IMG/VR virus record: IMGVR_UViG_3300036982_000142 | Coordinates: 1-30,646 of that record | DNA: 30,646 nt | Reading direction: 5' to 3' (one strand) | DNA from: a virus | Lineage: Duplodnaviria > Caudoviricetes | In this document: positions 118 through 27,967 of the stretch, piece by piece | Numbering within the stretch: the stretch's first letter is position 1 | Layout of the letters: every line of letters starts with the position of its first letter | Program-made: the position numbers and the translations under genes | The notes under the pieces: generated by a model | Seen by the model: the letters and a program-made list of their open reading frames with translations, nothing else | Told to the model about the DNA's origin: nothing | Databases searched by the model: none

Positions 118-143
118 TAACCAACTTTTCTAAATACTACTTA
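118..143 (+). promoter_or_regulatory. Putative phage late promoter TAACCA-N14-TACTTA
   Basis: Exact motif with 14-nt spacer, 10 nt before ATG 154; repeated at 18100, 22032, 26105, 27942 and (TAACCG) 11381. Confidence 0.8.
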
Positions 144-153
144 TTAAGGTAGT

Positions 154-501
154 ATGATATACATTGAACAAAACCAAAACAATACAATAGCCTTAACGCT
201 AACGGAAAGTGCAACAATCACAGCACCGACTTGGTTGTTTAAATTCGTGTGGGAAATGGACCAAACACTTGACCCTATCTATTGGGTTGGCGTGGACTAT
301 TCTCAATATGTTAACCGCTATAACCTTTTCTTTTTGGAGGAAGGTGTTGACGTAACTTTACGAATTGGTCAATTTCGCTATTGGGTTTACGAAAGTCCAG
401 TGCCAATAATTGTCGACCCAAACACGAACGACAACGGATTGACTTTAGTTGAAGAGGGTCGTATGGTGGTCGAAGGTATATCGAATTCAATTTATGACTA
501 A
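154..501 (+). CDS. Hypothetical virion-module protein (beta-rich)
   Basis: 115-aa ORF after the late motif, overlapping the portal start by 1 nt. Confidence 0.7.
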   Translation: MIYIEQNQNNTIALTLTESATITAPTWLFKFVWEMDQTLDPIYWVGVDYSQYVNRYNLFFLEEGVDVTLRIGQFRYWVYESPVPIIVDPNTNDNGLTLVEEGRMVVEGISNSIYD

Positions 502-1790
502 TGGGTTTATTTGGAAAGTTTAAAAAAGACGACAGTCTTAAAATAGTTGACACAGGTTACCAAAGTTTTAGTACTCCGTTCCTGCGTGTGCCTGAAGGCA
601 ATTTGTCTTTACCCTTTGTTGATGTGCGTTACACTACGCAGGGTTACGTGCGTTTCGGAAGTGACAACCTTTATCCTCAGTACATGAACCAAATGTACTA
701 TATGAGTCCGTTGCACGGGTCTATTGTAGACTTTAAGACCAACGCAACTATAGGAGGTGGGTACACATTTGACGAGTCCAAACTTACGGACATGGAAAAG
801 GTGGTACTTTATGCGTTCGGAAAAAAGATAGGTTTTAAAGACACGCTAAAGACGATCACGAAAGACGTAATTCTTCACGGACGTTGCTACTTTTTAATTG
901 AGTTGAAAGGCGGGAAGACGTATAACGTGAAACGAGTAGCCCCTGAGAAGGTAAGAATAAACCAAGCTAAAACAATCTACGCAGTAAATGAGGACTGGCA
1001 GTTTGGTATGCAAATTAGAACCTTCGAACCATACCACCCGGAATGTAAAGACGGAACTTACCTATACGCTTACGAACAAAAGAGCGTAGGACAAGACTAC
1101 TATCCTTTACCGCAGTATACAAGTGCGTTAAACTTCGCCTTTTTGAGTGGTGAATTGTCCTACTTGCAGAAATCGAACATACAAAACTCCATTTTTCCAT
1201 CGTTTGCCATGATGTTTCCAAAGAAGCCCCAAGGTAATGAGGAAATGCAGCTGATAAAAGACACGGTTAACAAGTTGAAAGGGGCGGAGAACGCAGGAAA
1301 AGCGGTTGCATTCTTTGCTAATAACAAGGAAAGTTTGCCCGATATTGTTAACGTACCGACAAATTCAAACGACGAGTTATTTAAGGGGGTTAGTGAGTTG
1401 AATACCGAGCAAATTTGTTTCGCTCACACCATTGACCCTATACTTTTGGGTGTGCGCACTACGGGTTCTTTGGGTAGTGGTTCGGATATTAAACAAGCGT
1501 ATGTAATCTTTGAAAAGAATACTATTATTCCTTTGCGTGAAACCATTACGGATGTAATAAACGGACTTTTACGGGCGGTTGGTATCAATGCACACGTAGA
1601 AATAACTAACTACCAAATCGTAAACGAAACTATTACAAGCGTAGACGAAAAGGGTAAAGACATTATAAACGCATTAAACGCAATGAACCCAACACTTGCC
1701 GCTAAAGTTTTGGAAAATATGACAGCAAACGAAATACGGGAACTTGCATCTTTAGCTCCGTTACCTGACACTCAAACACCAGCGCAATGA
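501..1790 (+). CDS. Portal protein
   Basis: 429 aa; FGSDNLYP N-terminal motif, GAENAGK, 'EQICFAH..DPILLGV', 'IIPLRE.I' pattern typical of phage portals. Confidence 0.85.
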   Translation: MGLFGKFKKDDSLKIVDTGYQSFSTPFLRVPEGNLSLPFVDVRYTTQGYVRFGSDNLYPQYMNQMYYMSPLHGSIVDFKTNATIGGGYTFDESKLTDMEKVVLYAFGKKIGFKDTLKTITKDVILHGRCYFLIELKGGKTYNVKRVAPEKVRINQAKTIYAVNEDWQFGMQIRTFEPYHPECKDGTYLYAYEQKSVGQDYYPLPQYTSALNFAFLSGELSYLQKSNIQNSIFPSFAMMFPKKPQGNEEMQLIKDTVNKLKGAENAGKAVAFFANNKESLPDIVNVPTNSNDELFKGVSELNTEQICFAHTIDPILLGVRTTGSLGSGSDIKQAYVIFEKNTIIPLRETITDVINGLLRAVGINAHVEITNYQIVNETITSVDEKGKDIINALNAMNPTLAAKVLENMTANEIRELASLAPLPDTQTPAQ

Positions 1791-2302
1791 TTTACTTCGT
1801 AACTGAAAATTACCTAAAGGTAAACACCCCCATAACTGCTAACGTTGACGTTACGGACGTTTTCCCGTACGTTAAACCCGCAAGTGATATGCGAGTCCAA
1901 GCAATACTCGGTTCGTACTTCTATGCGTACCTTTTGGCTGCGTATAACGCTCAAACATTAAACAACGACGAAGAACTTTTAGTTGAAAAAATACAGCCCG
2001 TTGTAGCGTGGAGGGCAGCCGAACAAGCCGCCTTCGGATTAACTTACCAACTTAAAAATAAAGGTATTCAAACCCAAAACGGGGACTACTCAAATAGCGT
2101 GAGTCAAAATGAAACGGCTTTTGTTATGGATCACTACGGACAAATGGCTGCTTTCTACGAGAAAAGATTAACTAACTATTTGCTCACGAACAAAGCATTA
2201 TTTCCCGAGTTTACAAGTGACCTAAACACGGACTCGGATATTAAGCCCGTAGGTGGTTGCGGCAATAGAGGTGACTACGACAACACTATGATGGTTATCT
2301 AA
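1787..2302 (+). CDS. Putative head-tail adaptor/connector
   Basis: 171-aa helical protein coupled (ATGA) to the portal; position and size fit an adaptor. Confidence 0.55.
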   Translation: MIYFVTENYLKVNTPITANVDVTDVFPYVKPASDMRVQAILGSYFYAYLLAAYNAQTLNNDEELLVEKIQPVVAWRAAEQAAFGLTYQLKNKGIQTQNGDYSNSVSQNETAFVMDHYGQMAAFYEKRLTNYLLTNKALFPEFTSDLNTDSDIKPVGGCGNRGDYDNTMMVI

Positions 2303-8415: not shown

Positions 8416-8450
8416 TATATTTGTCTACTTCTTTTTTTCATGTTAGGTTT

Positions 8451-8478
8451 AAGGCATCCCTTCGGGGGTGCTTTTTTT
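8451..8478 (+). terminator. Rho-independent terminator with cUUCGg tetraloop
   Basis: AAGGCATCCC-TTCG-GGGGTGCTTT followed by a T-run. Confidence 0.9.
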
Positions 8479-8487
8479 ATGACAAGA

Positions 8488-8521
8488 CCCCCCAAGTTTC
8501 CCCCCAAGTCACCCCCCAAGT
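8488..8521. repeat. 3 x CCCCCCAAGT, 12-bp period
   Basis: Copies at 8488, 8500, 8512. Confidence 0.95.
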
Positions 8522-8593
8522 GTTACAATTCCGTCACACATTTAACCTAAGTTTGTGACAAATCTCCAGTTTTTTAATCATTGAACTTGACAA

Positions 8594-8641
8594 AATGTCT
8601 AACAATGTCTAAAAATGTCTAAAAAATGTCTAAAATGCCTA
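8594..8641. repeat. 4 x AATGTCTAA plus one degenerate copy, about 10-bp period
   Basis: Copies at 8594, 8604, 8614, 8625; AATGCCTA at 8634. Confidence 0.95.
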
Positions 8642-10989: not shown

Positions 10990-11393
10990 TCTACATAAAG
11001 GCGCAACTTCCAAGACGTAACTTTTACACTATGCATGAATTTTTCATAGTTTGTCCGTGTTCTCACGAGTCACTAAAGGAAGCTAATAGACTGCGTCAGC
11101 TGATGCAATGGCGTCAAGTTGGTATGGTTTGGGCTACGTTGTCAGGACTTTCACTCACTGAGGCGGGACGTTTGTTTAACAAGAACCACGCAACGGTAAT
11201 TCACTCCCAAGAAATGGTTAAACTTGCACTGGAAGGATATCACCCCGAATTAAAGGATAAGTTTATGGAGGTTATGGAGTCGGTGGAGTTAGCGCAGTCA
11301 GCATCTCACGACATTAACACGAACTACATTATTTCGAGTAGACGTATTGAAAAATTGTTGATAAAACGTTACGAAAGAATTAACCGCATTTAG
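10953..11393 (+). CDS. Protein with DnaA C-terminal (domain IV)-like HTH
   Basis: SLTEAGRLFNKNHATVIHS resembles DnaA SLxEIGxxFGxRDHTTVxHA; true start uncertain. Confidence 0.7.
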   Translation: MVKIGTTYGRKLIYIKAQLPRRNFYTMHEFFIVCPCSHESLKEANRLRQLMQWRQVGMVWATLSGLSLTEAGRLFNKNHATVIHSQEMVKLALEGYHPELKDKFMEVMESVELAQSASHDINTNYIISSRRIEKLLIKRYERINRI

Positions 11394-11406
11394 GACGTAA
11401 TACTTA
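11381..11406 (+). promoter_or_regulatory. Variant of the phage motif, TAACCG-N14-TACTTA
   Basis: One mismatch, same 14-nt spacer; upstream of the structured leader. Confidence 0.65.
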
Positions 11407-11419
11407 ATTTAGTAGACAC

Positions 11420-11513
11420 AAGTTCACATCCTACATTATATGAACTTTAAAGGCGTTATTAGCCCTTGCAATGAATGACAGGTAGGATGGTCAGGATTTG
11501 TGAGGGTTTTTTT
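11420..11513 (+). ncRNA. Structured RNA leader/attenuator with complementary loops
   Basis: Two hairpins; loop CATCCTAC (11427-34) complementary to loop GTAGGATG (11482-89); ends in a T-run. Confidence 0.6.
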
Positions 11514-11533
11514 ATTTTTTAAAAATTTAAGTT

Positions 11534-11719
11534 ATGAACGAAGAAAAAGATTATTTAAAATTTGAGTGTAAATTGACTCCTCAAAAGGGTGATGTATTAT
11601 TTGTAAGTGATGGAAGAACTATGTTATTTCAAGTTGGTAATGACGAAAATTTTAATTCAGTTGGTTTGAATAAGGAAGATGTTAAGGAGTTAATTCAATA
11701 TTTAGTAAAATACTTATGA
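11534..11719 (+). CDS. Hypothetical protein
   Basis: 61-aa ORF coupled (ATGA) to the initiator gene. Confidence 0.65.
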   Translation: MNEEKDYLKFECKLTPQKGDVLFVSDGRTMLFQVGNDENFNSVGLNKEDVKELIQYLVKYL

Positions 11720-12390
11720 ACGGATATGATTTAAGCAGAAACTTCTGCAACTGGGCATTTGAAAACCCCGACAAAGTAAAGCCAATTCACTATGCAATTT
11801 TCTACTTTGCTATTGAACACTGCAACCGTTTAGGATGGAAGGACAAATTCGGTCTTCCTTCACAAATGGTTATGGAGGCAATAGGAGTTAAAAATTGGAG
11901 AACGTATGCAGCAGGATTAAACGAACTTGTTGAATTTGGGTTTATTGAAATGGTTGAAATTAGCAAAAATCAATACTCATCTAATATAATTGCTATTGTA
12001 AAAAATACCAAAGCACCTACCAAAGCATTAGACAAAGCATTGTCAAAGCACAGTACAAAGCACAGTCAAAGCACTGTTAGTATAGTTAAACAAGAAACAA
12101 TAAACAAAGAACAACTACACCCATTGGTTATTTATTTAAATACTAATTGTGAACAAGTGCAAGGTTTATCGTCGCCAATAAACAACTTGGACGCTGAACG
12201 TCTGTTAGTTGAATTTGACAAACACGACTTAGTGGAGGTGTTTATGGCAATGGAAAACACGAAGGAACTTAAAAAGAAATACAATAGTGCTAATTTGACA
12301 GTTAGGTCTTGGATAAAAAGACGACAAAAAGATAGTAGTACCTTCGGACAAATTAAACAACAAGACAAATTCAAAGCGGCATGGCAATAG
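11716..12390 (+). CDS. Replication initiator (winged-HTH N-terminus, lambda O/DnaD-like organisation)
   Basis: N-terminal wHTH-like segment (IGVKNWRTY..GLNELVEFGFIE), iteron-coded linker, directly upstream of the helicase. Confidence 0.7.
   Translation: MNGYDLSRNFCNWAFENPDKVKPIHYAIFYFAIEHCNRLGWKDKFGLPSQMVMEAIGVKNWRTYAAGLNELVEFGFIEMVEISKNQYSSNIIAIVKNTKAPTKALDKALSKHSTKHSQSTVSIVKQETINKEQLHPLVIYLNTNCEQVQGLSSPINNLDAERLLVEFDKHDLVEVFMAMENTKELKKKYNSANLTVRSWIKRRQKDSSTFGQIKQQDKFKAAWQ
12009..12073. repeat. Six CAAAGCA iterons, putative replication origin
   Basis: Copies at 12009, 12021, 12033, 12044, 12056, 12067, followed by an A-rich tract. Confidence 0.8.
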
Positions 12391-14340: not shown

Positions 14341-14349
14341 ATAAACCAT

Positions 14350-15569: not shown

Positions 15570-15627
15570 ACGAAAAGTGCATTATAACGCACAAAACACG
15601 AACAAAAAGTAATTTTAAAGACACGTT

Positions 15628-16052: not shown

Positions 16053-16237
16053 AAAAACAAACAGCCGTTGAATGGCTTGTAGAGCAAATCAAAAGTGATA
16101 GTGATATTATTTTTTGTTATGACAAAAATGTGCATCCATTTGACAAATATGTAGAGACAGCCAAAGCAATGGAAAAAGAACAAAAAATTGAAAAGTATTT
16201 CAAAGGTGTTAAAAAAGGTAAGAAACTTTTATTTTAA
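16049..16237 (+). CDS. Hypothetical protein (TAVEWL family)
   Basis: 62 aa; QTAVEWL...AKAMEKEQ. Confidence 0.65.
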   Translation: MKKQTAVEWLVEQIKSDSDIIFCYDKNVHPFDKYVETAKAMEKEQKIEKYFKGVKKGKKLLF

Positions 16238-16247
16238 ACAAACAATT

Positions 16248-16385
16248 ATGAAAACAACAGTGTACAACACATGGAAACAATGGGGGGTAATATGCTTTAC
16301 TCCAATGGTAGCAATCGACTTTGACGACAAAGTAATTAGAATTGCATGGATTATTTTACAAATCGAAATCAACAAAAACAAGTAA
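16248..16385 (+). CDS. Hypothetical protein, 45 aa
   Basis: Start moved to ATG 16248 behind an A-rich leader. Confidence 0.55.
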   Translation: MKTTVYNTWKQWGVICFTPMVAIDFDDKVIRIAWIILQIEINKNK

Positions 16386-16386
16386 G

Positions 16387-16623
16387 ATGAGTTACGAACA
16401 CAAAGCAAACACGGGTACACTTTTCCCTAACAACAAAAAAGCAGACACGCACCCGGACTACAAGGGTAAAATCAAGGTAGGCGAAGTCGAGTACGAACTT
16501 GCAGGGTGGATTAAAAAGACGGACAAAGGACAATTCCTTTCATTGAAACTATCCGAACCCTTCCAACCTACACCACAAAGCACCTCGGAGAAAATTATGG
16601 ACTCAACGGGTATTCCATTTTGA
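16387..16623 (+). CDS. Putative single-stranded DNA-binding protein (DUF736-like)
   Basis: GTLF.N..K...HPDY.G, AGW, LSL, C-terminal IPF tail; start moved to ATG 16387. Confidence 0.7.
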   Translation: MSYEHKANTGTLFPNNKKADTHPDYKGKIKVGEVEYELAGWIKKTDKGQFLSLKLSEPFQPTPQSTSEKIMDSTGIPF

Positions 16624-16844
16624 GAGTAGCAGAACTTACCCAACTCAACGGCTTTCTTCGGGAGGTCGTTGAGTCACGGCTCGAAGTGGAAAGTATGCGG
16701 TCTTTTTGCAGACGGTCTAAAGTCCAGTGCAGCCAAGTGAAGAAGTTACTAAACAACGAGGGCGGATTAAACACGACCACAGTTCAACGAATTGCCCACG
16801 CACTAATTGACTCACGTTATGAGGCGCATGACATTTCTATTTAA
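16620..16844 (+). CDS. Putative Cro/XRE-like HTH protein
   Basis: TTG start; SMRSFCRRSKVQCSQVKKLLN and TTVQRIA..L pattern. Confidence 0.5.
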   Translation: MRVAELTQLNGFLREVVESRLEVESMRSFCRRSKVQCSQVKKLLNNEGGLNTTTVQRIAHALIDSRYEAHDISI

Positions 16845-16881
16845 GATATGTGGTAAAATTTAGGACTTAACCTTTAAAGAA

Positions 16882-17208
16882 ATGAATAAACAAATAGCAA
16901 TTGAACTTGACAGCGCAGTTAAAATAGTAGCAGATAGATTTTCAAGAACAGATAGAGAAATGAATCACAATAATGAGACATTTCATGTGGACAAAATTTA
17001 TCCAACTGGAGACCATACAGCCACGGTAATGTTTAAAAAATCATCTGGTAAATTAGGTGCTGCTTTCTTTTATTACATTCCTAATGGTATGAGTAAAGGA
17101 TGGAAATATTTTTTCCCTACAGATTCTCACATTATTGGAATGAGAGCATTTGAATGGTATAAACTTATGGCAGAAAATGAAAACTATCAGCATAATTTTA
17201 AATCATAA
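16882..17208 (+). CDS. Hypothetical protein
   Basis: 108-aa ORF, more AT-rich than its neighbours. Confidence 0.7.
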   Translation: MNKQIAIELDSAVKIVADRFSRTDREMNHNNETFHVDKIYPTGDHTATVMFKKSSGKLGAAFFYYIPNGMSKGWKYFFPTDSHIIGMRAFEWYKLMAENENYQHNFKS

Positions 17209-17212
17209 TAAA

Positions 17213-17335
17213 ATGAGGCGCAAACCAACTGACAAGAACCATGTCAAATATCGGACGCAAAGACGGACAAAATCCGATTGGTGTAGATATATCTTTCAAT
17301 TACCCGCCTTCGAGCGACTTAACCCTGACGAATAA
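17213..17335 (+). CDS. Small basic protein, 40 aa
   Basis: ATG 17213 after A-rich spacer; ends in the terminator. Confidence 0.45.
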   Translation: MRRKPTDKNHVKYRTQRRTKSDWCRYIFQLPAFERLNPDE

Positions 17336-17348
17336 GTTGGGGTTTTTT
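17321..17348 (+). terminator. Rho-independent terminator
   Basis: AACCCTGAC/GTTGGGGTT stem plus T-run. Confidence 0.75.
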
Positions 17349-17375
17349 GTTGGTTAAAAAATAATTGTATCTTTG
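17346..17375 (+). promoter_or_regulatory. Host-type promoter TTTG-N18-TATCTTTG for the sigma operon
   Basis: Bacteroidota consensus, 17 nt before ATG 17393. Confidence 0.8.
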
Positions 17376-17392
17376 ACTAAAATCTAATCATT

Positions 17393-17650
17393 ATGGAATA
17401 CGTTTTTTTAATTGCAATGGGGTGGTTTATTCAGGAGTTTGAACCATTTAAGTATTTAGCCGACCTCATCTACGACCGCATTAAGCCCCGACCACTAATT
17501 GATTACGTCTTCGGATCGTTGGAGTGTTGGCAGTGTTGCACATTTTGGTCAGCACTTGCTATTACATGGTCGTTTGAAAAGGCGGTCATTGCTTCGTTTA
17601 TTACGTTTGGGTTACAAATGCTGCACGAAGGATGGATGCGCAGGAAGTAA
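17393..17650 (+). CDS. Small membrane protein with CxxC (DUF1360-like)
   Basis: Hydrophobic segments and LECWQCCTFW motif. Confidence 0.65.
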   Translation: MEYVFLIAMGWFIQEFEPFKYLADLIYDRIKPRPLIDYVFGSLECWQCCTFWSALAITWSFEKAVIASFITFGLQMLHEGWMRRK

Positions 17651-17838
17651 ACCTATTCGAAACCCTTTACGACGAGTTTAACTTGGGTAAAGTTAGCAAG
17701 GTGACTGCGGTGCGTTGTCGTGACGTGTGGAATACGTACAACCCTACAAAAAAAATTACCTATTGTATGTGTTCTTCGGTTCAACGCAGGATATACGCAA
17801 AGGACTTTTTAACGTGGTATGCGGAATATAATAGATAG
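17632..17838 (+). CDS. Small Cys-containing protein
   Basis: 68 aa, C...YCMC; overlaps both neighbours. Confidence 0.65.
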   Translation: MDAQEVNLFETLYDEFNLGKVSKVTAVRCRDVWNTYNPTKKITYCMCSSVQRRIYAKDFLTWYAEYNR

Positions 17839-18322
17839 ATTCTACACTGACAACTATACGCTGTTGGTGAGTGCTGCGAAAAGACGAATAACGCAGTTGA
17901 AGAAATCTATTGAACCAGAAAGCCTTGTTTCCTCGTCCTATTTGTACTTAGTGGGGAAGGTAGACACGATCACCGAGGAAGAAATCGAACGCCTTGCATT
18001 TGGGTTCATCTATTTCGAGCTGATGAGGTACAACTCGCAGACGAATTTAAAGGAACGGATAAACTCCATGGATTTAGAGTTTGAGATTAGTGACGGGAAT
18101 AACCAATCCAACAACCTACTACTTAAAATAGATGTAAGGGACTTTGAAAAAACGTTAGATAGAGTCGATGCAATACTATGGGAAGTGTACTACAACAAGG
18201 GAATAACTACTAAACGAGACTTAGCCGACCATTTTAACATTGACCCTTCCAGTGCATTGATTTACATTAACGAGTTGAAGCAAAAATTTAGAAATTATGT
18301 TGAAGATAAAGAGCGAATATAA
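17819..18322 (+). CDS. Putative ECF-like sigma factor / late transcription activator
   Basis: 167 aa; region-2-like N-terminus (FY...Y..L...A.R...E.LV...YL.L) and region-4-like HTH (L...D..L.E.YY..G.T.RDLA..FNI...S....I...K.K.R). Confidence 0.7.
   Translation: MRNIIDRFYTDNYTLLVSAAKRRITQLKKSIEPESLVSSSYLYLVGKVDTITEEEIERLAFGFIYFELMRYNSQTNLKERINSMDLEFEISDGNNQSNNLLLKIDVRDFEKTLDRVDAILWEVYYNKGITTKRDLADHFNIDPSSALIYINELKQKFRNYVEDKERI
18100..18125 (+). promoter_or_regulatory. TAACCA-N14-TACTTA inside the sigma gene, upstream of the packaging operon
   Basis: Exact motif and spacer. Confidence 0.7.
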
Positions 18323-18536
18323 CGGAGTTAGCGTTGAGTACAAATTGGGGACTGTCCGGGTAACCAAGAAAATTGAGGACTTGACCGAAGCCGACATAAA
18401 CACGGCTAAGAAATGGGGGGTTAACTTAGAAAAGTACTTTGAAAAGACGGAACTACCAACCGAACAACCAACCATACTACCAACTATTGCCTATGAGGGA
18501 GTAGACCAACCTAAACCTAAACGCAAAAAGAAATGA
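18297..18536 (+). CDS. Hypothetical protein with basic tail
   Basis: 79 aa, KPKRKKK C-terminus. Confidence 0.65.
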   Translation: MLKIKSEYNGVSVEYKLGTVRVTKKIEDLTEADINTAKKWGVNLEKYFEKTELPTEQPTILPTIAYEGVDQPKPKRKKK

Positions 18537-18703
18537 AACTAAGCCACGTATTCGCTTTTTTAGTCGCTTGCCTTACGTTTACGGCTGCACTCAGTTTGAT
18601 ATACCACGAGACCGACTTAGTTATGACGTTTTCAGGGTTTTCAATTATCAGTTACCTATGTTACCTCATTGCCATTACAGGCGAAAACGAACACAATGGC
18701 TAA
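18533..18703 (+). CDS. Small two-TM membrane protein, 56 aa (MKLSHVFAFL...)
   Basis: Not in the ORF track; ATGA overlap, two hydrophobic helices. Confidence 0.65.
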   Translation: MKLSHVFAFLVACLTFTAALSLIYHETDLVMTFSGFSIISYLCYLIAITGENEHNG

Positions 18704-18893
18704 TTACTACCTACTTGACGCAGGGAAGAACATGACAAAGTTCGCCATAGCACTGGAAGACGAACTCAAAGAGCAAAAAGCCCACGTAGTTTTTTACCTC
18801 ACGGACGTTGACGGGCTAATGTGCTTGGAGGAAATAAGCGAAGATGAGTTCTTAGACCATTACACCAAAAACACGAAACAAAATGGAAAGTAA
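18696..18893 (+). CDS. Hypothetical protein
   Basis: Start moved to ATG 18696 (MANYYLL...). Confidence 0.6.
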   Translation: MANYYLLDAGKNMTKFAIALEDELKEQKAHVVFYLTDVDGLMCLEEISEDEFLDHYTKNTKQNGK

Positions 18894-19392
18894 ATTAGTA
18901 AAAATATCAGAGGTTAAGTTAAACCCTAACAACCCTCGTCAAATCAAAGACGACAAGTTTAAGAACTTAATCAAATCAATTAAGGACTTTCCACAAATGT
19001 TAGACATTCGTCCTATTGTAGTCAATGAGGATATGGTTATCTTGGGAGGTAATATGAGGTTCCGTGCTTGTAAGGAAGCAGGATTAAAAGAAGTGCCCGT
19101 AATTGTAGCGAACAACTTAACCGAAGACCAACAGCGTGAGTTTTTGATTAAAGACAACGTAAGCGGTGGAGAATGGGATTGGGACTTATTAGCGAATGAG
19201 TGGGAAGTTGAGCAGTTAGAAGAATGGGGATTGGATGTACCAAAAATTTTAGAGTATACAGAAAATGAGCCAAGCGGTTACGATTTATCACAAAAATGGT
19301 TTTTAAATATCGAATTTGAAAATGAACAAGACTGTGAAAAATGGTATAACTCGTTAATTGAAGAAGGTTTAATTTGTAAAATAGTCCAATGA
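18883..19392 (+). CDS. ParB/Srx N-terminal domain protein
   Basis: NP.NPR.I, RPIVV, ILGGN.R..A, DN...GEWD...L. Confidence 0.85.
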   Translation: MESKLVKISEVKLNPNNPRQIKDDKFKNLIKSIKDFPQMLDIRPIVVNEDMVILGGNMRFRACKEAGLKEVPVIVANNLTEDQQREFLIKDNVSGGEWDWDLLANEWEVEQLEEWGLDVPKILEYTENEPSGYDLSQKWFLNIEFENEQDCEKWYNSLIEEGLICKIVQ

Positions 19393-20510
19393 TACCAAGC
19401 AATATAAAATTTGAATTACAAAGTGAAGTGTTTAACACTTTTCGATGTCAAGCCGCAGCAAATAGTTTAGATATTGACGTTAAAAAAAAGTCGGTACATA
19501 AACTCGAAATAAATAATATCAATCTTCCTAAAACTTGGAATATAGGCTTAATTTATGGTGCTTCAGGTAGTGGCAAAACAACCTTAGCAAAGCATTTGTT
19601 TGGCAGTGATATATTTGATTGTTCTATGGATGACAATAAAAGTATTATAGACCAATTACCTCAAGAATATACATATGAAGATTGTGCAAATATATTAAAC
19701 GGTATAGGTTTAAACTCAGTTCCTTGTTGGATTAGACCAATTAAAACATTGTCGAATGGTCAACGGGCAAGAGCAGAAGCGGCTTATTTGATGTGTAAAC
19801 AAGATTTTATTTGTATAGATGAGTGGACAAGCGTAGTGGATAGAACTGTTGCAAAAGCAATGAGTGTATGTTTGCAAAAATTTGCCAAGAAATACAACAA
19901 ACAAATAATTTTATTAAGCTGTCATTATGACATTTTAGAATGGGTCAATCCAGATTGGATGATTGATTGTAACAAACAAATTTTTGAACTTCCCAAATCG
20001 GAGGATTTTTTTTTTAGTGAGCGAGAAAAACTCGAATTTACAATTAAAGAAGTCGGCAGAGAAACTTGGAAGTATTTTAGTAAATATCATTATTTAAGTG
20101 AACGGCTGCCCGGTGGTAAAATATATTTGTACGGCATTTTTTATGGTAACGACCAAATAGGCTTTCAATGCTTTGCTAATTACACGCCACACAAAAAAGG
20201 AACAAAGATTATTTATCACTCGAATAGAACAGTAATCCACCCCGATTACAATGGTCTTGGTTTAGGTATTAAGTTAATAAATGAAACAAGCAGTTTGCTT
20301 CAACAAAAAATAGACTGCAAAATAATGGCTAAATTTTCTGCTATTCCAGTTTTCAAAGCAATGAAAAAACAAAAGCAATGGATTTTCTTAGGAGAAAAAA
20401 GATTGATGGGTAAAATGAAAACGGGCGGAACTGCGTCAAAAGGCTTTGCGCAAAATCAGAGTTTTAGAGAAAATGGAGTTAGGACATTTCATTTTGAATT
20501 TAGAAAATAA
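19389..20510 (+). CDS. ABC-type ATPase fused to a GNAT acyltransferase
   Basis: Walker A GASGSGKT, signature LSNGQ, Walker B ICIDE, H-loop SCH; GNAT motif A RTVIHPDYNGLGLG. Confidence 0.85.
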   Translation: MIPSNIKFELQSEVFNTFRCQAAANSLDIDVKKKSVHKLEINNINLPKTWNIGLIYGASGSGKTTLAKHLFGSDIFDCSMDDNKSIIDQLPQEYTYEDCANILNGIGLNSVPCWIRPIKTLSNGQRARAEAAYLMCKQDFICIDEWTSVVDRTVAKAMSVCLQKFAKKYNKQIILLSCHYDILEWVNPDWMIDCNKQIFELPKSEDFFFSEREKLEFTIKEVGRETWKYFSKYHYLSERLPGGKIYLYGIFYGNDQIGFQCFANYTPHKKGTKIIYHSNRTVIHPDYNGLGLGIKLINETSSLLQQKIDCKIMAKFSAIPVFKAMKKQKQWIFLGEKRLMGKMKTGGTASKGFAQNQSFRENGVRTFHFEFRK

Positions 20511-20527
20511 CGTGAAAAAAACGAGAT

Positions 20528-20902
20528 ATGGCAAATGAACAAAACTTAAAAAAATTCAGTTCGGAATATCAACCCGAGAAGAACGGGCGACCTCGCAAAT
20601 GGATAAGCGAACTTAAAGAAAGCGGTTACAAATCTTCGGAAGTGAACGACTGTATTTTAGTAATGTTGTCAATGACATTGGAGGAACTTGCTGACGTATA
20701 TAAAAACCCGAAGGCAACTATTCTTGAAAAGACGGTTGCCAATGCTTTAAAGCGGTCACTTGAAAAAGGTTCGCTGTATTCACTTGAGACGCTATTAAGT
20801 CGAGCAGTAGGTAAGCCAAAGGAAAGCGTAGACCATACGACAATGGGCGAAAGGTTAACCGAGGTTCAAGTAAACATAGTCAATGCAGATAAACGCAACT
20901 AA
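20528..20902 (+). CDS. terS: Putative terminase small subunit
   Basis: N-terminal NL..F...NGRPRK, helical core, GKP.E.VD; overlaps TerL. Confidence 0.7.
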   Translation: MANEQNLKKFSSEYQPEKNGRPRKWISELKESGYKSSEVNDCILVMLSMTLEELADVYKNPKATILEKTVANALKRSLEKGSLYSLETLLSRAVGKPKESVDHTTMGERLTEVQVNIVNADKRN

Positions 20903-22034
20903 TATCTTTCAACGTAACTGGGACGCACTTACCAACTCGGAGGTGCGTTTCATCGTTAACGAGGGTGGCTCACGTTCAAGTAAGACCTATTCGCTTTGTC
21001 AGCTGCTAATTGTCTACTGCATACAAAACCCAAACAAGGTTGTTAGTATTGTTCGTAAGACCTTCCCTGCATTGAGGGCTACGGTCATGCGTGACTTCTT
21101 CGAGATACTTAAAGACTTGGAGATTTACGAAAAGGCGAACCATAACATGAGTGAGAATATATACCGCTTCCCCAATGGAAGTATAGTTGAGTTCTTTAGT
21201 GTGGACGACGAGCAAAAGATACGGGGGCGTAAGCGGGATATAGGTTGGTGCAACGAGGCGAATGAACTTTATTTCGAGGACTTCCAACAGCTCAACATGC
21301 GAACCGAGGACAAGTTGATATTTGACTACAATCCGAGTGAGTCTTCCTCATGGCTTTATGAGTTACCGCCTCACGAAAGCGTAATGATCAAGTCGACCTA
21401 CAAAGACAACCCCTTCCTGCCCGAAAGCATTAAGCGACAAATCGAAGACCTTAAGCGAACCGACGAAAGTCTTTACCAAATTTACGCTCTGGGTGAAAAG
21501 GCAATCAGCAAATCTAACATATACAACAATTGGACGTTTACTAAGTCGAGACCTTCGAGGTTTACTAATTTCGTGATGGGACTTGACTTCGGGTATAATC
21601 ACCCCACTGCGCTCGTAAGAGTCTATTGGCATGAGGGGGATATTTACATTGAGCCAGTAATTTATCAAAGCTACCTAACCACTTCGGAGTTAATCCAAAA
21701 GTTCAAAGACCTCGACATTGAAAAGACGATTGATATAATGGCAGATTACTCACGCCCCGAAATAATTGCCGAAATGCAAAACGCAGGGTATAACGTGAAC
21801 AACGCTAACAAGTCGGTTAAGATGGGGATAAACTACGTTAAGACCTTCGGGGTATTTTGTGAGGAAGAACCAACGCTAAAAAAGGAATACGAAAATTATA
21901 AGTGGAAGAAGGTAGGCGACATGATATTAGACGAACCTGTCAAACTATACGACGATGCAATGGACGCAGTGCGTTACGCAACTACTCACATTAAAGAGAT
22001 GTACTATACCGACGATGGCTACGTGGCGTTCTAA
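20883..22034 (+). CDS. terL: Terminase large subunit, PBSX family
   Basis: GGSRSSKT Walker A, NEA.E, YNP, TYKDNPFL, GLDFG...P, DAMDAVRY. Confidence 0.95.
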   Translation: MQINATNIFQRNWDALTNSEVRFIVNEGGSRSSKTYSLCQLLIVYCIQNPNKVVSIVRKTFPALRATVMRDFFEILKDLEIYEKANHNMSENIYRFPNGSIVEFFSVDDEQKIRGRKRDIGWCNEANELYFEDFQQLNMRTEDKLIFDYNPSESSSWLYELPPHESVMIKSTYKDNPFLPESIKRQIEDLKRTDESLYQIYALGEKAISKSNIYNNWTFTKSRPSRFTNFVMGLDFGYNHPTALVRVYWHEGDIYIEPVIYQSYLTTSELIQKFKDLDIEKTIDIMADYSRPEIIAEMQNAGYNVNNANKSVKMGINYVKTFGVFCEEEPTLKKEYENYKWKKVGDMILDEPVKLYDDAMDAVRYATTHIKEMYYTDDGYVAF

Positions 22035-22057
22035 CCACCAAACGAAATAAATACTTA
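22032..22057 (+). promoter_or_regulatory. Late promoter motif TAACCA-N14-TACTTA
   Basis: Exact motif, 7 nt before ATG 22065. Confidence 0.8.
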
Positions 22058-22064
22058 AGGAGTT

Positions 22065-23471
22065 ATGGCAATGACACTAATAGCAGCACCGCAAGACTTC
22101 ACACCAGCGTATAACCCTTGCAAGTTTATATTCAACTCGACGAACAAGAACAACGAGGGCTTTCGATATATCTTCGACATTTACGAAAGTGGCACGATCA
22201 ATAAAATAGGTGAGTACCGGGTACTGCCTACCTACGGAACGGGCTACGGGGAAGTTGACCTCAGCAAGTTGTTAGGGTCAAAAGTTGCGCCCGACTTCCA
22301 ACCTACTAACTACTCGGAGTTAGACACACCGACTTCACGCTACAAGTACGATGTGCAAGTAGGCGAAGAATACATAGTCACTTACAACTACACCGCTTCA
22401 CTTGCGGACAACGGGGGTAACGTTGAGATTACACCTACCGCAGCTCACACATTTTTAGTGGGTGACCAAGTTGTAGTTGACGCAGGAACGAACACTTTGA
22501 TTACGGGCTTATGGACTGTCATAGCCGTAACTGGAACGACGGACTTTACAATCAGTGCGGCTTGGTCAAACGTTGTCGACCCAACGGAGAACGGAACGGT
22601 AACTTATGCGGACAAGCGAAAGACGGTCACACGGGATATTATAGACGAACTAAACAAATACGTGTTTAACGGAGCGTTGCCTTGGGTGCAGTTTCCTAAC
22701 TACCTTTTAACTGACTATTTATTAGACAACACGGCTGCGCTATTCCTGACTTCGATGTCTTACCGAGATATGACCATAGCACCTAATCAGGAAGTTTGGT
22801 TTAATGGGTTCAACAACTCGGTGACGGGTCGAGTAGTGTTTAACAATAGCAACGGGGACTCGTTTTACTACGATGTCATGAACACGGAAATAACTACTCA
22901 ACTTTGCGTTGCAAGTCCTAACCTTAACCTAACTGTCATTACTGGAACTGCGCCATTGATTAAGTCCGATACAACGTACTACGAGTTTTATTTCATTGAT
23001 GCTTCAGCACCACCCGACTCACAAACGTACACTTTTAACATTGACCAACGCTGCGCAATCAACGACTACTATTTAGTCTTTTTAGATCGTATGGGTTCGT
23101 GGAGTTCGTTTAGTTTTCCTTTACGTTCTTACGAGACGGGGACAAGCACAAAGCAATCCTTTAACAAAGTGGTTGAGGGCTACGTTAACGGGACGGAGTG
23201 GAGTTATACAAGTGACGCAAGAGGGCTAACAACTTACTCGAGTACGGTAGACAAAAACTTCCAACTCAATACAAACTGGATGAACGAGCAAATGGCTGCC
23301 TACTTCCAAGAGTTGATTACGTCACCCGTAGTGTACTTTTGGGACGGAACTCAGTACCTTGCTTGTGTTGTTCAGGAAACCGCCTTCGAGGTTGAGCGAC
23401 AAAAGAACAAGAACCTAATTAAAAAGACGGTTAACGTAAAGTTGGCGAACCAAGACAAAATTAACTTATGA
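22065..23471 (+). CDS. Tail structural protein (distal-tail-like)
   Basis: 468 aa, beta-rich; C-terminal FL.R.G.W..F.F, LNT.W, EL..SP.V pattern seen in Bacteroidota phage tail proteins. Confidence 0.6.
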   Translation: MAMTLIAAPQDFTPAYNPCKFIFNSTNKNNEGFRYIFDIYESGTINKIGEYRVLPTYGTGYGEVDLSKLLGSKVAPDFQPTNYSELDTPTSRYKYDVQVGEEYIVTYNYTASLADNGGNVEITPTAAHTFLVGDQVVVDAGTNTLITGLWTVIAVTGTTDFTISAAWSNVVDPTENGTVTYADKRKTVTRDIIDELNKYVFNGALPWVQFPNYLLTDYLLDNTAALFLTSMSYRDMTIAPNQEVWFNGFNNSVTGRVVFNNSNGDSFYYDVMNTEITTQLCVASPNLNLTVITGTAPLIKSDTTYYEFYFIDASAPPDSQTYTFNIDQRCAINDYYLVFLDRMGSWSSFSFPLRSYETGTSTKQSFNKVVEGYVNGTEWSYTSDARGLTTYSSTVDKNFQLNTNWMNEQMAAYFQELITSPVVYFWDGTQYLACVVQETAFEVERQKNKNLIKKTVNVKLANQDKINL

Positions 23472-26107
23472 GTGTACGCATACAATTAGAGACGGGCTAC
23501 CTTGACGTGAAGGAGGGGACTGCCTTCCCCCTTAATTTTGGTGTTGCTGACATTCGAGACGTAAGTAAAAAGTCGGGAGCGTTCTCAAAGACGATTACGT
23601 TAACGGGAACGGCAAACAACAACAACCTACTCAATCACTACTACGATATAAACGTACAGGCGGGAACGTTTAACATAAACACCCTGACGAGGTGTAGTGT
23701 TATTCAAAACGGACTTCCAGTTCTTGAAGCGGGTTACCTTCAACTAATAGCTGTTAACAAAGTACAAACGACTGCGGACTATGAGAACGAAGTTGAATAC
23801 GAGGTTTTAGTAAAAGACGAAAGTTCGGACTTCTTTACCAAGTTAGGCAATAAGGAACTTACGGACTTAGATTTTAGCGACCTTAACCACGAGTACCGAG
23901 CGGACAACGTAGTGAACTCATTTGCGAACACTCAAGGGGATGGGTACAAATACCTCCTACCCTTTAAGGACTCTAATAGTTATTTACTGCAAGAGATGAA
24001 ACCCGCCATTTACGCAAAGACTTACTTTGACCGTATCTTTAGCAACGCAGGGTTTTCTTACACTTGGAATAGTTTAGCTGCTGCCCACTTCGACAAACTC
24101 ATAATACCTTTTAATGGGGAAAAGTCAGTTGTTGACAACACCGATTATTTAGTTGACGCAAATACTTCGTTTACTGACTCAGGAACTCCAGCGGTATTTA
24201 TTAACCCAATTACGGGGTGGACGGAAACACAAGACGCATTTAACTTATTCAATCCAACTACGGGAGAATACGATGTGCCTTTTAACTTACAAGCGTCCGA
24301 AAGTGTAGTATTTGAGTTTACGTTTACCGCAGACTTAACGCTTATAAATGGCAACGCAGGAACGGCAACACTACAATCGAACAACCTATCTTATAAGCCG
24401 TACTTTCAACTTGATTTAAACGGCACACCATACGCAACAACAAACGGTTCACCTGCGGGAATAAGCGTACCTTTTGGAACTACTATACCAGTCGGCAATA
24501 CTTCAATAGGTACTTTGTCAGGGACTTATTCAATGTTAGTAAGTAACGTAATCACAACGGACTTATTTACTATTAAGGGCGGTTCGTTAACTTTGGACTA
24601 TTGGACTGTTGGCGGTGTGTTTGCGCAAGTAGGTTTAGAAATAGATTTTACTTCGTTGCAAGTTCGCATACTACCTTCGTCAAACATTCTCGGCTACGGG
24701 GCGCAGATTGATATGAATAACGTAGTGCCTAACAAGGTAAAGCAAGCGGATTTCATTAAGTCATTGTTCACGATGTACAACCTTTATACCGAGCAAGACA
24801 ACGACGTTCCTAACAACTTGGTGTTGATGCACCGAGACGACTACTACGACAGCGGAGCGGAGATTGATTGGACGTATAAGTTAGCAAAGGACAAAGACCA
24901 AGCCCTTCAATTCTTACCCGAGTTGAGCGCAAAGAAATTAATCCTAACCTACAAGAACGACAGCGACGACCCTAACAAAATATACTTTGAAGCTACTAAA
25001 GAAATATACGGACAACTTGAGTTTATCTTCGACAACGAGTACGTCAAGGGAATAGACACGAAAGAAATAACCTTTAGCCCGACACCAATAGGACTAAGCA
25101 CATTCAACGCTTACTTACCTTTGCTTTCAGGCGAACCAAAAGTGAACATTCGCATCTTACAAGATGGAGGGGAGGGAACGTGTGACGCTTACAATTTATA
25201 CAACTACGGAACGACGGGCGAAACCAACGTAACGACCTACCCAATTTTGCACCATTGGGACGACCCGATAAACCCGAGCTTCGATATTCTATTTGCGCAG
25301 CCAGATTATATGTTTTATAACGGGTACAACGTCACGAATAACAACCTTTACAATTTGTACTGGAGACGCACCGTTAACCAAATCAATGTCGGTAAAATGT
25401 TGACGGCATATTTTGACCTACGAGAAGACGACATACAAAGTCTTAAGTTAAATTCAAAGGTTCGTATAGATAACAGTTGGTGGACGATTAACAAAGTAAT
25501 TGATTACGACTGCAACGCTCAAAACTTGACTAAGGTTGAATTGATGAGTGCGGACACTGAAATAGATTTAGCACCATTTAAAAAGGGCTCAGTTACCCCG
25601 ACAACGGTAGGAGACTTAGCAAGTCACACGGGCAGCATACACTTTAACAATTCGTTTGTGGGGAACGTAGTACCCGGTACGTCAGTAAGTGCTATCTACG
25701 GACAGGGCAACGTAATTCAACCGGGCGTTAACGGAATAATCGTAGGCGACAATAAGATACTCGACCAAACGGGAATAAGCACCGAGAGGATAGCTGCGGA
25801 CGTGGCTAACATTAAGTCGTTGAGTTTGTCGGGTGGTATTAAGTACCCACTTATTAAAACAAATGTTAACTACTATATAACAACAAACGATTATTTGATT
25901 ATTTGTGATGGTGTAAATATTTACTTACCATTAAGTTCAATTGAAAATCAAGGTCAAGTTTATGTTATTAAAACGGAAAGCAGCACAAGCATAGTTTATA
26001 CGTTGGGCTCAGATGTTATTGATTTATCTTCAACGTCAGTTACCCTGTTAGCATACGAAAGTATTTCCTTAATAAGCAATGGAAGTACGGGTTGGCTCAT
26101 TATTTAA
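23468..26107 (+). CDS. Large tail tip / hub protein
   Basis: 879 aa; 'LN...ADI.D...K...FSKT..L.GT..NN' N-terminus, Q.DFIK....YNL, fibre-like C-terminus. Confidence 0.65.
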   Translation: MSVRIQLETGYLDVKEGTAFPLNFGVADIRDVSKKSGAFSKTITLTGTANNNNLLNHYYDINVQAGTFNINTLTRCSVIQNGLPVLEAGYLQLIAVNKVQTTADYENEVEYEVLVKDESSDFFTKLGNKELTDLDFSDLNHEYRADNVVNSFANTQGDGYKYLLPFKDSNSYLLQEMKPAIYAKTYFDRIFSNAGFSYTWNSLAAAHFDKLIIPFNGEKSVVDNTDYLVDANTSFTDSGTPAVFINPITGWTETQDAFNLFNPTTGEYDVPFNLQASESVVFEFTFTADLTLINGNAGTATLQSNNLSYKPYFQLDLNGTPYATTNGSPAGISVPFGTTIPVGNTSIGTLSGTYSMLVSNVITTDLFTIKGGSLTLDYWTVGGVFAQVGLEIDFTSLQVRILPSSNILGYGAQIDMNNVVPNKVKQADFIKSLFTMYNLYTEQDNDVPNNLVLMHRDDYYDSGAEIDWTYKLAKDKDQALQFLPELSAKKLILTYKNDSDDPNKIYFEATKEIYGQLEFIFDNEYVKGIDTKEITFSPTPIGLSTFNAYLPLLSGEPKVNIRILQDGGEGTCDAYNLYNYGTTGETNVTTYPILHHWDDPINPSFDILFAQPDYMFYNGYNVTNNNLYNLYWRRTVNQINVGKMLTAYFDLREDDIQSLKLNSKVRIDNSWWTINKVIDYDCNAQNLTKVELMSADTEIDLAPFKKGSVTPTTVGDLASHTGSIHFNNSFVGNVVPGTSVSAIYGQGNVIQPGVNGIIVGDNKILDQTGISTERIAADVANIKSLSLSGGIKYPLIKTNVNYYITTNDYLIICDGVNIYLPLSSIENQGQVYVIKTESSTSIVYTLGSDVIDLSSTSVTLLAYESISLISNGSTGWLII

Positions 26108-26130
26108 CCAACATAAACACGAATTACTTA
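26105..26130 (+). promoter_or_regulatory. Late promoter motif TAACCA-N14-TACTTA
   Basis: Exact motif, 8 nt before ATG 26139. Confidence 0.8.
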
Positions 26131-26138
26131 AGTAAGTT

Positions 26139-26612
26139 ATGCAAGGTTCATTTAAGATAAAGTACAAAACCCGTTTTAAGCTACAAAAAGCTATTCAACA
26201 AACTATTACTCAAATTGGGTTTGATGAGTCAGGTGAAGGTACGGGAACGATGCACGACTCAATTCGTATTTCAGCTGCAACGGGTGACTTGAATAAATTA
26301 TACGTTACGATTAACGCCATCTTTTACTATATGTTTATGGACAAAGGCGCAAACCTTACCAATGGTGGGGTTATTCGTCCGCAGTTCATAACACAAAAAG
26401 CAATAGATAGCCCTTTAGGTCAACAGTTCTTAAACGACGCAGTAGGCGAGTACCTTGTATGGATGCAAGCCAACTATCCTATCTTAGACGTGGCTACAAT
26501 TAACGTCACCCCTTCCAATATCAAGTTAGAAATTACTTATAATTTATTCGGTGCTGATGGTGGTAAGTGGAACGGAGAATTTGACTACGCTACTAATTGG
26601 AATAATTACTAA
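26139..26612 (+). CDS. Putative neck/tail-completion protein
   Basis: 157 aa; TG.M..SI and Y..FMD.G motifs reminiscent of HK97 gp10-like proteins. Confidence 0.5.
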   Translation: MQGSFKIKYKTRFKLQKAIQQTITQIGFDESGEGTGTMHDSIRISAATGDLNKLYVTINAIFYYMFMDKGANLTNGGVIRPQFITQKAIDSPLGQQFLNDAVGEYLVWMQANYPILDVATINVTPSNIKLEITYNLFGADGGKWNGEFDYATNWNNY

Positions 26613-27347
26613 TTAGCCCTTGTTGAGTTGTAGGTCTTCCACCATTGACAGCATGTTAAACACGAAGATTAAATTTAGGTCGGTGACTGCGTCTATTTTA
26701 GTTAGGTCTTGGTTCGCTAAGTCGTAGAGTAGTTTTTCCCAACTCCACTTTGTAAATACCTTTTCTTCGGCTTCGGCTTTCAGGTCTTCTTCGTCAAGTT
26801 CGGTTTCGTCTTCCTCAATGACTGGATTAAATAGGTTCTCGTAGCGTTTCTTAAAGTCGTTTGAATAATCAATGTAGTTCTTTACCGCCCCGTAAACTTC
26901 GTTTATACTTACGTCTTGAAACGTATCTTTGCGGCTCATTATACTATACGTATAGGGCTCAAATATTAAGTTACCCCACTCGTCCGTCTTCCAACGTTTG
27001 TATAATATACTAAGCAAAATGTCGAAATTTTGTACAAATTGCATAGCATAATGTTCAAGGTCGATGAACTCCCCTAACGTAAGCCTATCCAACGGCTTCA
27101 ACTTTAAACCTTTCACGAGTTCTTTTGGCTTATTGGATGGCTCACGCTTAACAAAACTAACCTTTTTTGCAAGGTCAATTAGTTCTTCGGGGTCGAGGTC
27201 TTCCAGTTCTTCGGGGTCTGTATCCGATAGTATGGAAAGTGCCTCGATTGTTTGCAGGAATACGGAGTTATATTCTTCTTCGTCAATGGTGTTTAATTCT
27301 AACCACTGATTAACGTTTACTTCGTTCCAATTTCTCGGTAAATTCAC
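26613..27347 (-). CDS. Acidic protein, possible tail assembly chaperone
   Basis: GTG start, 244 aa; P.NW.EV...Q, LTLGEFIDLE, ILYKR. Confidence 0.6.
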   Translation of the reverse strand: MNLPRNWNEVNVNQWLELNTIDEEEYNSVFLQTIEALSILSDTDPEELEDLDPEELIDLAKKVSFVKREPSNKPKELVKGLKLKPLDRLTLGEFIDLEHYAMQFVQNFDILLSILYKRWKTDEWGNLIFEPYTYSIMSRKDTFQDVSINEVYGAVKNYIDYSNDFKKRYENLFNPVIEEDETELDEEDLKAEAEEKVFTKWSWEKLLYDLANQDLTKIDAVTDLNLIFVFNMLSMVEDLQLNKG

Positions 27348-27349
27348 CT

Positions 27350-27898
27350 TTATTCCGTTACTTCTTCGTTAGCTTCTTCTAACTTCTTTTCCGAAATTGC
27401 GGCTATCTTTTGCAGAATTTCCATAATGTACGGGAATGCAACTTCTGCGTTTTGTTTCTTCATTAAAGCTACCTTTACTTTGATGTGTGCAGGAGCGTAG
27501 TGTTCGGTACGGGTTAAGTCAGTACGTTTGAAAAGTATGGCTAACGTTTGAGCGCAGAAATTATCGTCTTGTCCCCGGTATATTTTCTCAATTAACCCCA
27601 AGTCTTTTACTCCTATTGTTTCGTTTGCTTGGTAAGTATATTTGTCAATTACCAACTCGGTGATTTTGTCCGTGCTTGGTACGTCCGACTTGTTGAACTC
27701 TTTTATATAATGTGTAAAGTCGTCAAGTTCCATTTTGTCAAATGCTTTGTCAGGCACACCGAGGTATATAAATTTCTCAATCCATTTCTCGATTGTATCT
27801 AACTCTTGGTTGTTTTCAATTTTGTTGAGTTCGTCAAATTGCTGTACGGTTAACTCGTTAAGGTGGTTGGGTATTTCGACCCCGAACATTTGTATCAT
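27350..27898 (-). CDS. Paralogue of the downstream minus-strand gene, possible tail assembly chaperone
   Basis: 182 aa; IPN.L.EL...QF.EL, AILFKR. Confidence 0.6.
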   Translation of the reverse strand: MIQMFGVEIPNHLNELTVQQFDELNKIENNQELDTIEKWIEKFIYLGVPDKAFDKMELDDFTHYIKEFNKSDVPSTDKITELVIDKYTYQANETIGVKDLGLIEKIYRGQDDNFCAQTLAILFKRTDLTRTEHYAPAHIKVKVALMKKQNAEVAFPYIMEILQKIAAISEKKLEEANEEVTE

Positions 27899-27913
27899 TG
27901 CTTAGATTTTAAT

Positions 27914-27921
27914 CAAAGGTA
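27914..27921 (-). promoter_or_regulatory. Host-type -7 element TACCTTTG for the minus-strand operon
   Basis: CAAAGGTA on plus strand, 15 nt from the 27898 start; no well-spaced -33 seen. Confidence 0.55.
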
Positions 27922-27941
27922 TAAAAATAATGTTGAAAAAT

Positions 27942-27967
27942 TAACCAAAAGTATTTTAGTGTACTTA
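27942..27967 (+). promoter_or_regulatory. Late promoter motif TAACCA-N14-TACTTA
   Basis: Exact motif, 8 nt before ATG 27976. Confidence 0.8.

Follow-up and report, generated by a model that had tools for sequence, protein, structure and literature searches.

What reads a bipartite word that lies dispersed over a small phage genome, always on the same strand? The question is raised by the viral record IMGVR_UViG_3300036982_000142 (Duplodnaviria; Caudoviricetes), which we analysed over its whole stretch of 30,646 nucleotides (nt), hereafter called the window. An earlier note had drawn attention to six copies of the motif TAACCR-N14-TACTTA in this DNA and had proposed that it is a promoter recognised by the sigma-like product of open reading frame (ORF) 17819. 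We conclude, with a probability of roughly 85%, that the six sites are the -35/-10 promoters of the late programme, read by host RNA polymerase together with the phage sigma ORF 17819.

A pattern scan found seven matches to TAACCR-N14-TACTTA in the window, at 118, 11381, 18100, 22032, 26105, 27942 and 30472, all on the plus strand, whereas 100 shuffled sequences gave a mean of 0.04 and a maximum of one. Thus, the six coordinates of the earlier note, the common strand and the 14-nt spacer were all confirmed; its expectation that twelve fixed bases are rare by chance also holds, and many random matches on both strands are not seen. What it had overlooked is the seventh match at 30472, a repeat copy of the site at 118. 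The two ends of the window (1-292 and 30355-30646) form a terminal repeat of 292 nt with 6 mismatches, so that there are six distinct sites, not seven, in about 30,354 base pairs; the mismatches mean that the record may mix strain variants. The spacer is strict: when it is relaxed to 8-21 nt, TAACC and TACTT yield only three other matches (spacers of 12, 13 and 18 nt). No site with one mismatch exists in the window, and matches with two mismatches are at chance level (8 against a chance mean of 8.6). The sites and the features next to them are:

118..143, plus strand: motif site 1 (copy at 30472-30497 in the terminal repeat), at the head of the block of ORF 154, portal (Pfam/PHROG match) and lysis genes; ATG of ORF 154 10 nt downstream
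11381..11406, plus strand: motif site 2, with no ATG nearby; would drive the structured RNA and, further downstream, the replication genes
18100..18125, plus strand: motif site 3, within the linker codons of ORF 17819 and upstream of the packaging block
20883..22034, plus strand: terminase large subunit (Pfam/PHROG match), whose stop codon is the TAA of site 4
22032..22057, plus strand: motif site 4; ATG of ORF 22065 7 nt downstream
26105..26130, plus strand: motif site 5; ATG of ORF 26139 8 nt downstream
27942..27967, plus strand: motif site 6; ATG of the prohead protease gene (27976) 8 nt downstream, followed by the capsid gene (28920)
30439..30466, plus strand: intrinsic-terminator-like hairpin directly before site 1 (pattern scan only)

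Five of the sites had been placed upstream of late modules, namely portal, packaging, tail, neck and capsid. Pfam/PHROG matches back the portal, packaging and capsid labels, but the putative tail genes (22065 and 23468) have no family match, and the sole basis for the neck label (26139) is an ESM Atlas lead to an HK97-gp10-like protein (score 0.92, rank 9). Moreover, the site at 18100 is not intergenic but lies inside ORF 17819 (codons 94-103), and the site at 11381, which overlaps the end of a gene for a DnaA-C-type helix-turn-helix (HTH) protein, precedes a structured RNA and then replication genes.

ORF 17819 is part of a three-gene cassette that is found in 22/22 related phage records. This set leaves out G019, in which the region is absent from the record, and G028, in which the sigma ORF is truncated; both are also left out of the sigma tree. 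The cassette consists of:

17393..17650, plus strand: small hydrophobic CxxC protein, upstream of sigma in 22/22 records; candidate anti-sigma factor or cofactor
17632..17838, plus strand: small soluble CxC protein, before sigma in 22/22 records; candidate regulator, anti-sigma factor or cofactor
17819..18322, plus strand: sigma-like protein of 167 amino acids, the size of an extracytoplasmic function (ECF) sigma factor, with a sigma2-like domain (residues ~1-80), a flexible linker (85-103) and a sigma4-like HTH domain (~103-165)

Neither of the two small proteins has a family match. The AlphaFold model of ORF 17819 shows two confident helical domains joined by a linker (85-103) of low predicted confidence (pLDDT), and all rows listed for it in a Foldseek search against PDB are sigma factors or transcription complexes. 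VIA-align places residues 1-76 on the SigR N-terminal fragment (sigma2; Z 7.0, root mean square deviation (rmsd) 2.6, 70 aligned) and residues 101-164 on region 4 of SigW (sigma4; Z 8.2, rmsd 2.9, 63 aligned). Among 45 homologs, 23 match the sigma70-ECF family TIGR02937 (best E 3.8e-7), counted at E <= 0.05 and with the curated cut-offs not shown to be reached, and 4/45 match PF07638. The sigma-like nature claimed for the protein is thus borne out by the hidden Markov model (HMM) matches of its homologs and by its two-domain fold; each score is modest, and the weight that supports the model-based assignment lies in the agreement of both halves. Relatives are numerous, with 130 at E <= 0.001 among representatives clustered at 50% identity, and a tblastn search of 50,697 GenBank phage records gave no match (E <= 0.01).

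To follow the motif through related phages, we examined 80 of 477 terminase relatives, which carry sigma homologs in several clades, and fetched 24 viral records: 23 relatives and the control G004, which has a 27% partial match and no terminase match and is not a family member. At orthologous junctions these phages carry seven motif classes, each of which is limited to one sigma clade and all of which contain AAC (the number between the boxes is the spacer length):

class A: AACCR-14-TACTT
class B: AACAA-14-TACAAT
class C: AACA-15/16-YATTAT
class D: AACA-14/15-GCAAYAT
class E: AACTA-14-ACCAAG
class F: AACA-15-TATTCT
class H: AACA-14/15-TTAATAT

When each motif is scanned against all records, the result is nearly diagonal: a record's own class is present in 3-8 forward copies, where 0-0.6 are expected, and every other class in 0-1 forward copies. 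In 6/6 clade-A records (the window and five relatives), the clade-A motif occurs 5-6 times per record in forward and never in reverse orientation, whereas the 18 records of other clades together contain 1 forward and 3 reverse copies. Unbiased counting of words of the form 5-gap-5 also ranks the motif among the top words (rank 1-3) in 6/6 clade-A records. The same counting gives no clear motif in the other clades, where chance words score similarly; their motifs were derived from orthologous junctions instead. The earlier note had proposed to test whether motif variants co-vary with sigma; they do, in that close relatives all keep the motif, while phages whose sigma differs have a clade-specific variant in its place. 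Since relatives with a different sigma carry a different motif at the same places, the motif is likely read by the phage sigma. One record, G007, at first looked discordant and was rejected as such: it is a chimera with two sigmas, each segment of which bears the matching motif, and about 4.7 kb of a clade D phage are joined in it to a different phage with its own sigma (L119, L120). Another record, G014, contains two diverged copies of the structural block.

Two further observations bear on whether the motif acts as a promoter. The first concerns a conserved structured RNA candidate behind site 2:

11419..11513, plus strand: structured RNA candidate of about 95 nt, with a 5' hairpin and a terminator-like hairpin with a U-tract

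Its loops are complementary over 8 nt (11427-11434 with 11482-11489). A scan that specified only the 5' hairpin recovered 120 loci (L160-L279), which fall into 80 distinct variants. In each of the 80, the loop is matched downstream by its exact 8-nt complement, and in no case is there a complement that belongs to another variant; the U-tract is present in 77/80. Seven loop variants occur among these 80 relatives, and the window has its own eighth. Pair counts were made on 14 sequences. Upstream of the 80 variants there is a host-type TAnnTTTG box in 65, a class A or C motif in 11, both in 1 and neither pattern in 5. The motif thus stands where the known host promoter of Bacteroidota stands, which argues that it is itself a promoter. 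Rfam has no match at this element, which we take to resemble P4 CI-type specificity control and which often lies ahead of replication-initiator-like or HNH-like genes. An antiterminator fold, which is the minimum-energy structure in the window, recurs in only 2/77 relatives and was rejected as a conserved mechanism.

The second observation is the intragenic site. Codons 94-96 and 102-103, into which it falls, are invariant in 22/22 distinct clade-A sigma genes, while only 23/110 codons with an invariant amino acid are. By this comparison, the site fixes synonymous positions in a part of the gene, the linker, that should be under little constraint from the protein. Taken together, conservation, clade-specific replacement and the substitution for a host promoter before the structured RNA support, at the sequence level, the proposal that the motif is the promoter of the ORF 17819 sigma.

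Boxes of the host type also occur at conserved places, and next to them lies a putative terminator:

17321..17344, plus strand: intrinsic-terminator-like hairpin closing the early block (pattern scan only)
17368..17375, plus strand: host-type -7 box TAnnTTTG before the sigma cassette; such a box lies <=700 nt upstream of the sigma ORF in 19/23 records
27914..27921, minus strand: host-type -7 box for two genes on the reverse strand, back-to-back with site 6; in 21/24 records such a box stands 12-18 nt ahead of their ATG

Over the whole genome TAnnTTTG is not enriched (46 against 38 expected), so that only conserved positions are informative, and a scan of the window for E. coli-type promoters is at chance level (26 against 29). 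Because the TAnnTTTG boxes stand at conserved places, we take the host to be a member of the Bacteroidota. The earlier note had named Flavobacterium; the phylum agrees with these boxes, but the genus has no support. In seven records (G006, G011, G012, G013, G014, G030 and G010) only 4 nt separate the host -7 box from the ATG with which the cassette begins, so that a host promoter, too, would produce an mRNA with no leader at all. At the junction with the reverse-strand genes in clade D phages, the late -35 box and the host box of the opposite strand overlap, suggesting mutual exclusion.

From these elements we infer the following course of events, including core binding, timing, transcript starts and the roles of the partner proteins. 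Early transcription would depend on the host primary sigma, which would also transcribe the cassette of 17393, 17632 and sigma, starting from the box at 17368. The phage sigma would then bind core polymerase, with sigma4 reading TAACCR and sigma2 melting TACTTA, and the six sites would drive the packaging, virion and lysis blocks. No motif site lies between 11406 and 17819; the cognate site is inside or after the sigma gene, and the host-type box precedes the cassette. The intragenic site would fire into the packaging block and yield no further full-length sigma, which means that there would be no positive autoregulation. Finally, the site at 11381 would feed the terminator-bearing structured RNA ahead of the replication genes.

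Promoters of the sigma70 family start transcription about 7 nt after the -10 box. If the same geometry applies to TACTTA, and with an upper limit set by the ATG at the 8th base, leaders of only about 1-4 nt are predicted for ORFs 154, 22065, 26139 and 27976. The sequence upstream of these four motif-led genes is less A-rich than that of 24 others (0.35 against 0.53, at small sample size). The class C box lies 6 nt before the RNA hairpin in 6/6 cases and 5 nt before an ATG in 21/38 sites, which puts the predicted start at the ATG or one base before it. The host box lies 5-6 nt before the hairpin in 58/65 cases and spans -12 to -5 according to PMC9723704, so that the structured RNA would start 1-2 nt before its hairpin. 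The late mRNAs are thus predicted to be nearly leaderless.

Could the motif be a promoter that a host sigma reads with the help of a RinA/ArpU-style activator, be it ORF 17819 or another phage protein such as the DnaA-C-type HTH protein at 10953? ORF 17819 does lie just upstream of the packaging genes, 7/45 of its homologs weakly match TIGR01636 phage_rinA (best E 5.7e-4), and the structure ranked first by VIA-align is a UPF0122 protein that has sigma4 alone (Z 8.5, 64 residues). However, the N-terminal half of the protein aligns to sigma2 domains, both boxes of the motif change between clades, and none of the six sites has a downstream plus-strand host -7 box in the window. The other HTH candidates are also less constant than the cassette: the protein at 10953 is found in 20/22 motif-bearing records and absent from two, and the one at 16620 is found in 6/22 and absent from 16. 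We rate an activator of this kind as improbable. Even less probable is that an ECF sigma of the host reads the sites and that the motif differs between phage clades since their hosts differ. An AAC upstream box is typical of ECF promoters; moreover, Flavobacterium psychrophilum has 7 ECF sigmas (PMC9723704). The ECF-type host motif described there, however, has a CGT -10 box, and the sigma-like gene is kept in 22/22 phage records. In a sample of 151 genomes of the phylum, 67 motif matches occur, with at most three per genome and no excess over a backwards control; there is no sign of a host regulon, which only weakens the explanation, as the true host is probably outside the sample.

An RNA-level or translation-start signal that is no promoter at all would agree with the 24/35 clade-A sites that lie at a near-fixed distance before an ATG. 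Yet the remaining 11/35, in the sigma gene or before the RNA, have no start codon there, the spacer is fixed in length and free in sequence, and the motif replaces a known promoter before a non-coding element. It also often follows a terminator or overlaps the preceding stop codon. Of the three explanations we consider this the most remote.

Several points weigh against the preferred reading, namely that the sites are promoters read by the phage sigma. For clades B-H, the patterns were adjusted by eye to junctions that had been inspected beforehand, which makes most of their matches in the cross-scan circular. Sites outside this fitting are those of class C at the 3' end of the sigma gene (5/6 records) and before the structured RNA (5/6), one further F site, one further H site and, in 3/3 records tested, a class D site of relaxed pattern that lies directly behind the sigma gene and tracks the CAATAT/CAACAT sub-variant. 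The motif classes fall into the same groups in each of the three trees (sigma, capsid and protease); most of the covariation between motif and sigma is therefore shared descent, and only two contrasts separate sigma from capsid. G001 and G020 are 90% identical in capsid and 39% in sigma, and their motif differs at 3/3 sites; G006 and G009/G011 are 65% identical in capsid and 90-92% in sigma, and their motif is the same. Both comparisons support the view that the motif follows the divergence of sigma rather than that of the capsid. A site in the packaging block was not found in clades B, E, F and H. As to the protein, ORF 17819 itself has no sigma match in Pfam, PHROGs, NCBIfam or, by sequence, PDB; its best Foldseek E value against PDB is only 0.028, a VIA-align Z of about 8 is at a level that the method's own note calls common, and in the alignment its recognition helix lacks the basic residues typical of ECF sigma4. 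The calibration of starts on the structured RNA fails for class A, where the distance is 11-13 nt and the start would fall past the ATG of ORF 22065. Finally, the site at 11381 precedes replication genes, and "late" may have to read "middle/late".

The window looks like the complete genome of a small tailed phage, with portal, terminase, protease, capsid, holin, endolysin, helicase and recombination genes, and with no integrase match among the 54 ORFs scanned against Pfam and PHROGs. Among GenBank phages the best terminase match is 34% and the capsid has no match; judged by its sequences, this is a phage family without a cultured relative. The search for prophages and hosts gave 4 short contigs, which had been binned with four unrelated taxa, Chitinophagaceae among them. 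A sigma homolog was found in 1/301 genomes of the phylum, on that same Chitinophagaceae contig, which is short and phage-like. RNA data came from two runs only and cover a small share of the stretch (0.07) as contigs. Those on 11000-30646 cover parts of most regions; one contig of a relative starts at 28026, and another spans the site at 26105. Since contigs carry no starts, strand or level, we draw no conclusion from them. Other features of the genome are:

8450..8640, plus strand: long stretch between genes, downstream of the late block, that contains a terminator-like hairpin and repeats of the types CCCCCAAG (three) and AATGTCTAA (several); possibly an origin or packaging region
19389..20510, plus strand: fusion of an ABC-ATPase and a GNAT-like domain, in a region of GC content 0.34 between a ParB-like gene and the terminase genes; contigs of relatives from RNA libraries skip it, so it looks like a variable insert
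26613..27347 and 27350..27898, minus strand: the only two substantial reverse-strand genes, alike at the N-terminus; maybe tail assembly chaperones, a guess made with no family match

The useful part of the system is less the strategy, which is known, than a series of seven natural sigma variants, 20-60% identical, each with its own promoter word at the same positions. With swaps within such a series, one could test directly which sigma residues correspond to which promoter bases, and the pairs could be a source of orthogonal expression parts for Bacteroidota. First cistrons with almost no leader would be unusual in a phylum in which leaderless mRNAs account for 3.7% of transcripts in Bacteroides thetaiotaomicron (PMC7366714) and 5.5% in F. 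psychrophilum (PMC9723704). A joint reading of all observations, which we put forward tentatively and regard as doubtful in its entirety, would be a widespread uncultured family of small Bacteroidota phages whose late programme runs on leaderless mRNAs from a fast-evolving mini-sigma. It would comprise at least seven mutually orthogonal, co-diverged sigma-promoter pairs, a packaging promoter in the sigma linker codons, two Cys-motif partners forming an undescribed sigma control module, and a sigma wired onto a kissing-loop RNA switch that couples late transcription to DNA replication. If this were true, -10/-35 specificity could be read from the family as from a natural codebook, and a ready kit for orthogonal expression in Bacteroidota would be at hand. 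The earlier note had called the pair possibly uncharacterised. Our literature search found no description of this motif, phage group or structured RNA, but most subscription papers and supplements were outside it, so that absence from print is not established; pairs of phage sigmas and cognate promoters as such are a known strategy.

Several known systems can be compared with the one proposed here. In its size (below about 200 amino acids) and its sigma2-linker-sigma4 layout, ORF 17819 resembles the bacterial group 4 ECF sigmas (SigW, SigE, SigR, SigK), as does its presumed promoter with a fixed spacer between two boxes and AAC in the upstream box. ECF sigmas are autoregulated from a cognate promoter upstream of their own gene. 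The phage sigma gene, in contrast, has no cognate promoter upstream and would not be autoregulated in the usual way; moreover, the sequence of ORF 17819 is too divergent to match ECF HMMs, and its anti-sigma is only a candidate. The second box here is TACTTA/T, and a CGT -10 box, which is common, though not universal, for ECF sigmas (PMC9723704), occurs in none of the seven classes.

Among phage regulators, T4 gp55 and SPO1 gp28/gp34 are sigmas that redirect the host polymerase to later gene classes. T4 late promoters consist of a -10 box only and need gp33/gp45, and both T4 and SPO1 are large phages, unlike the one with the genome of about 30 kb described here. The RinA/ArpU/LtrC proteins of Gram-positive phages are late activators that help a host sigma from a single binding region upstream of terS. 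ORF 17819 shares with them the position just before the packaging module and a sigma4-like HTH; it differs by its six dispersed sites, its added sigma2-like domain and the lack of an adjoining plus-strand host -7 box. A further counterpart is gp36 of coliphage phiEco32, a two-domain sigma (sigma2-like and sigma4-like) that works with host core polymerase on middle and late genes, according to PMC12276001 and PMC4331800, the latter of which also covers phage 7-11. There is a weak fold match of ORF 17819 to the gp36 complex (9m7y_F, Z 5.1, rank 49 in VIA-align). The proposed system differs from gp36 in the host phylum, in its exact 6+6 bipartite word instead of the promoter consensus AATGTA centred at -11.5 (PMC12276001), and in the near-leaderless starts predicted here. 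After early transcription by the host primary sigma, gp36 contacts both the -10 and the -35 region, as ORF 17819 would. We do not claim that ORF 17819 belongs to the gp36 family but, by analogy, it likely works like gp36.

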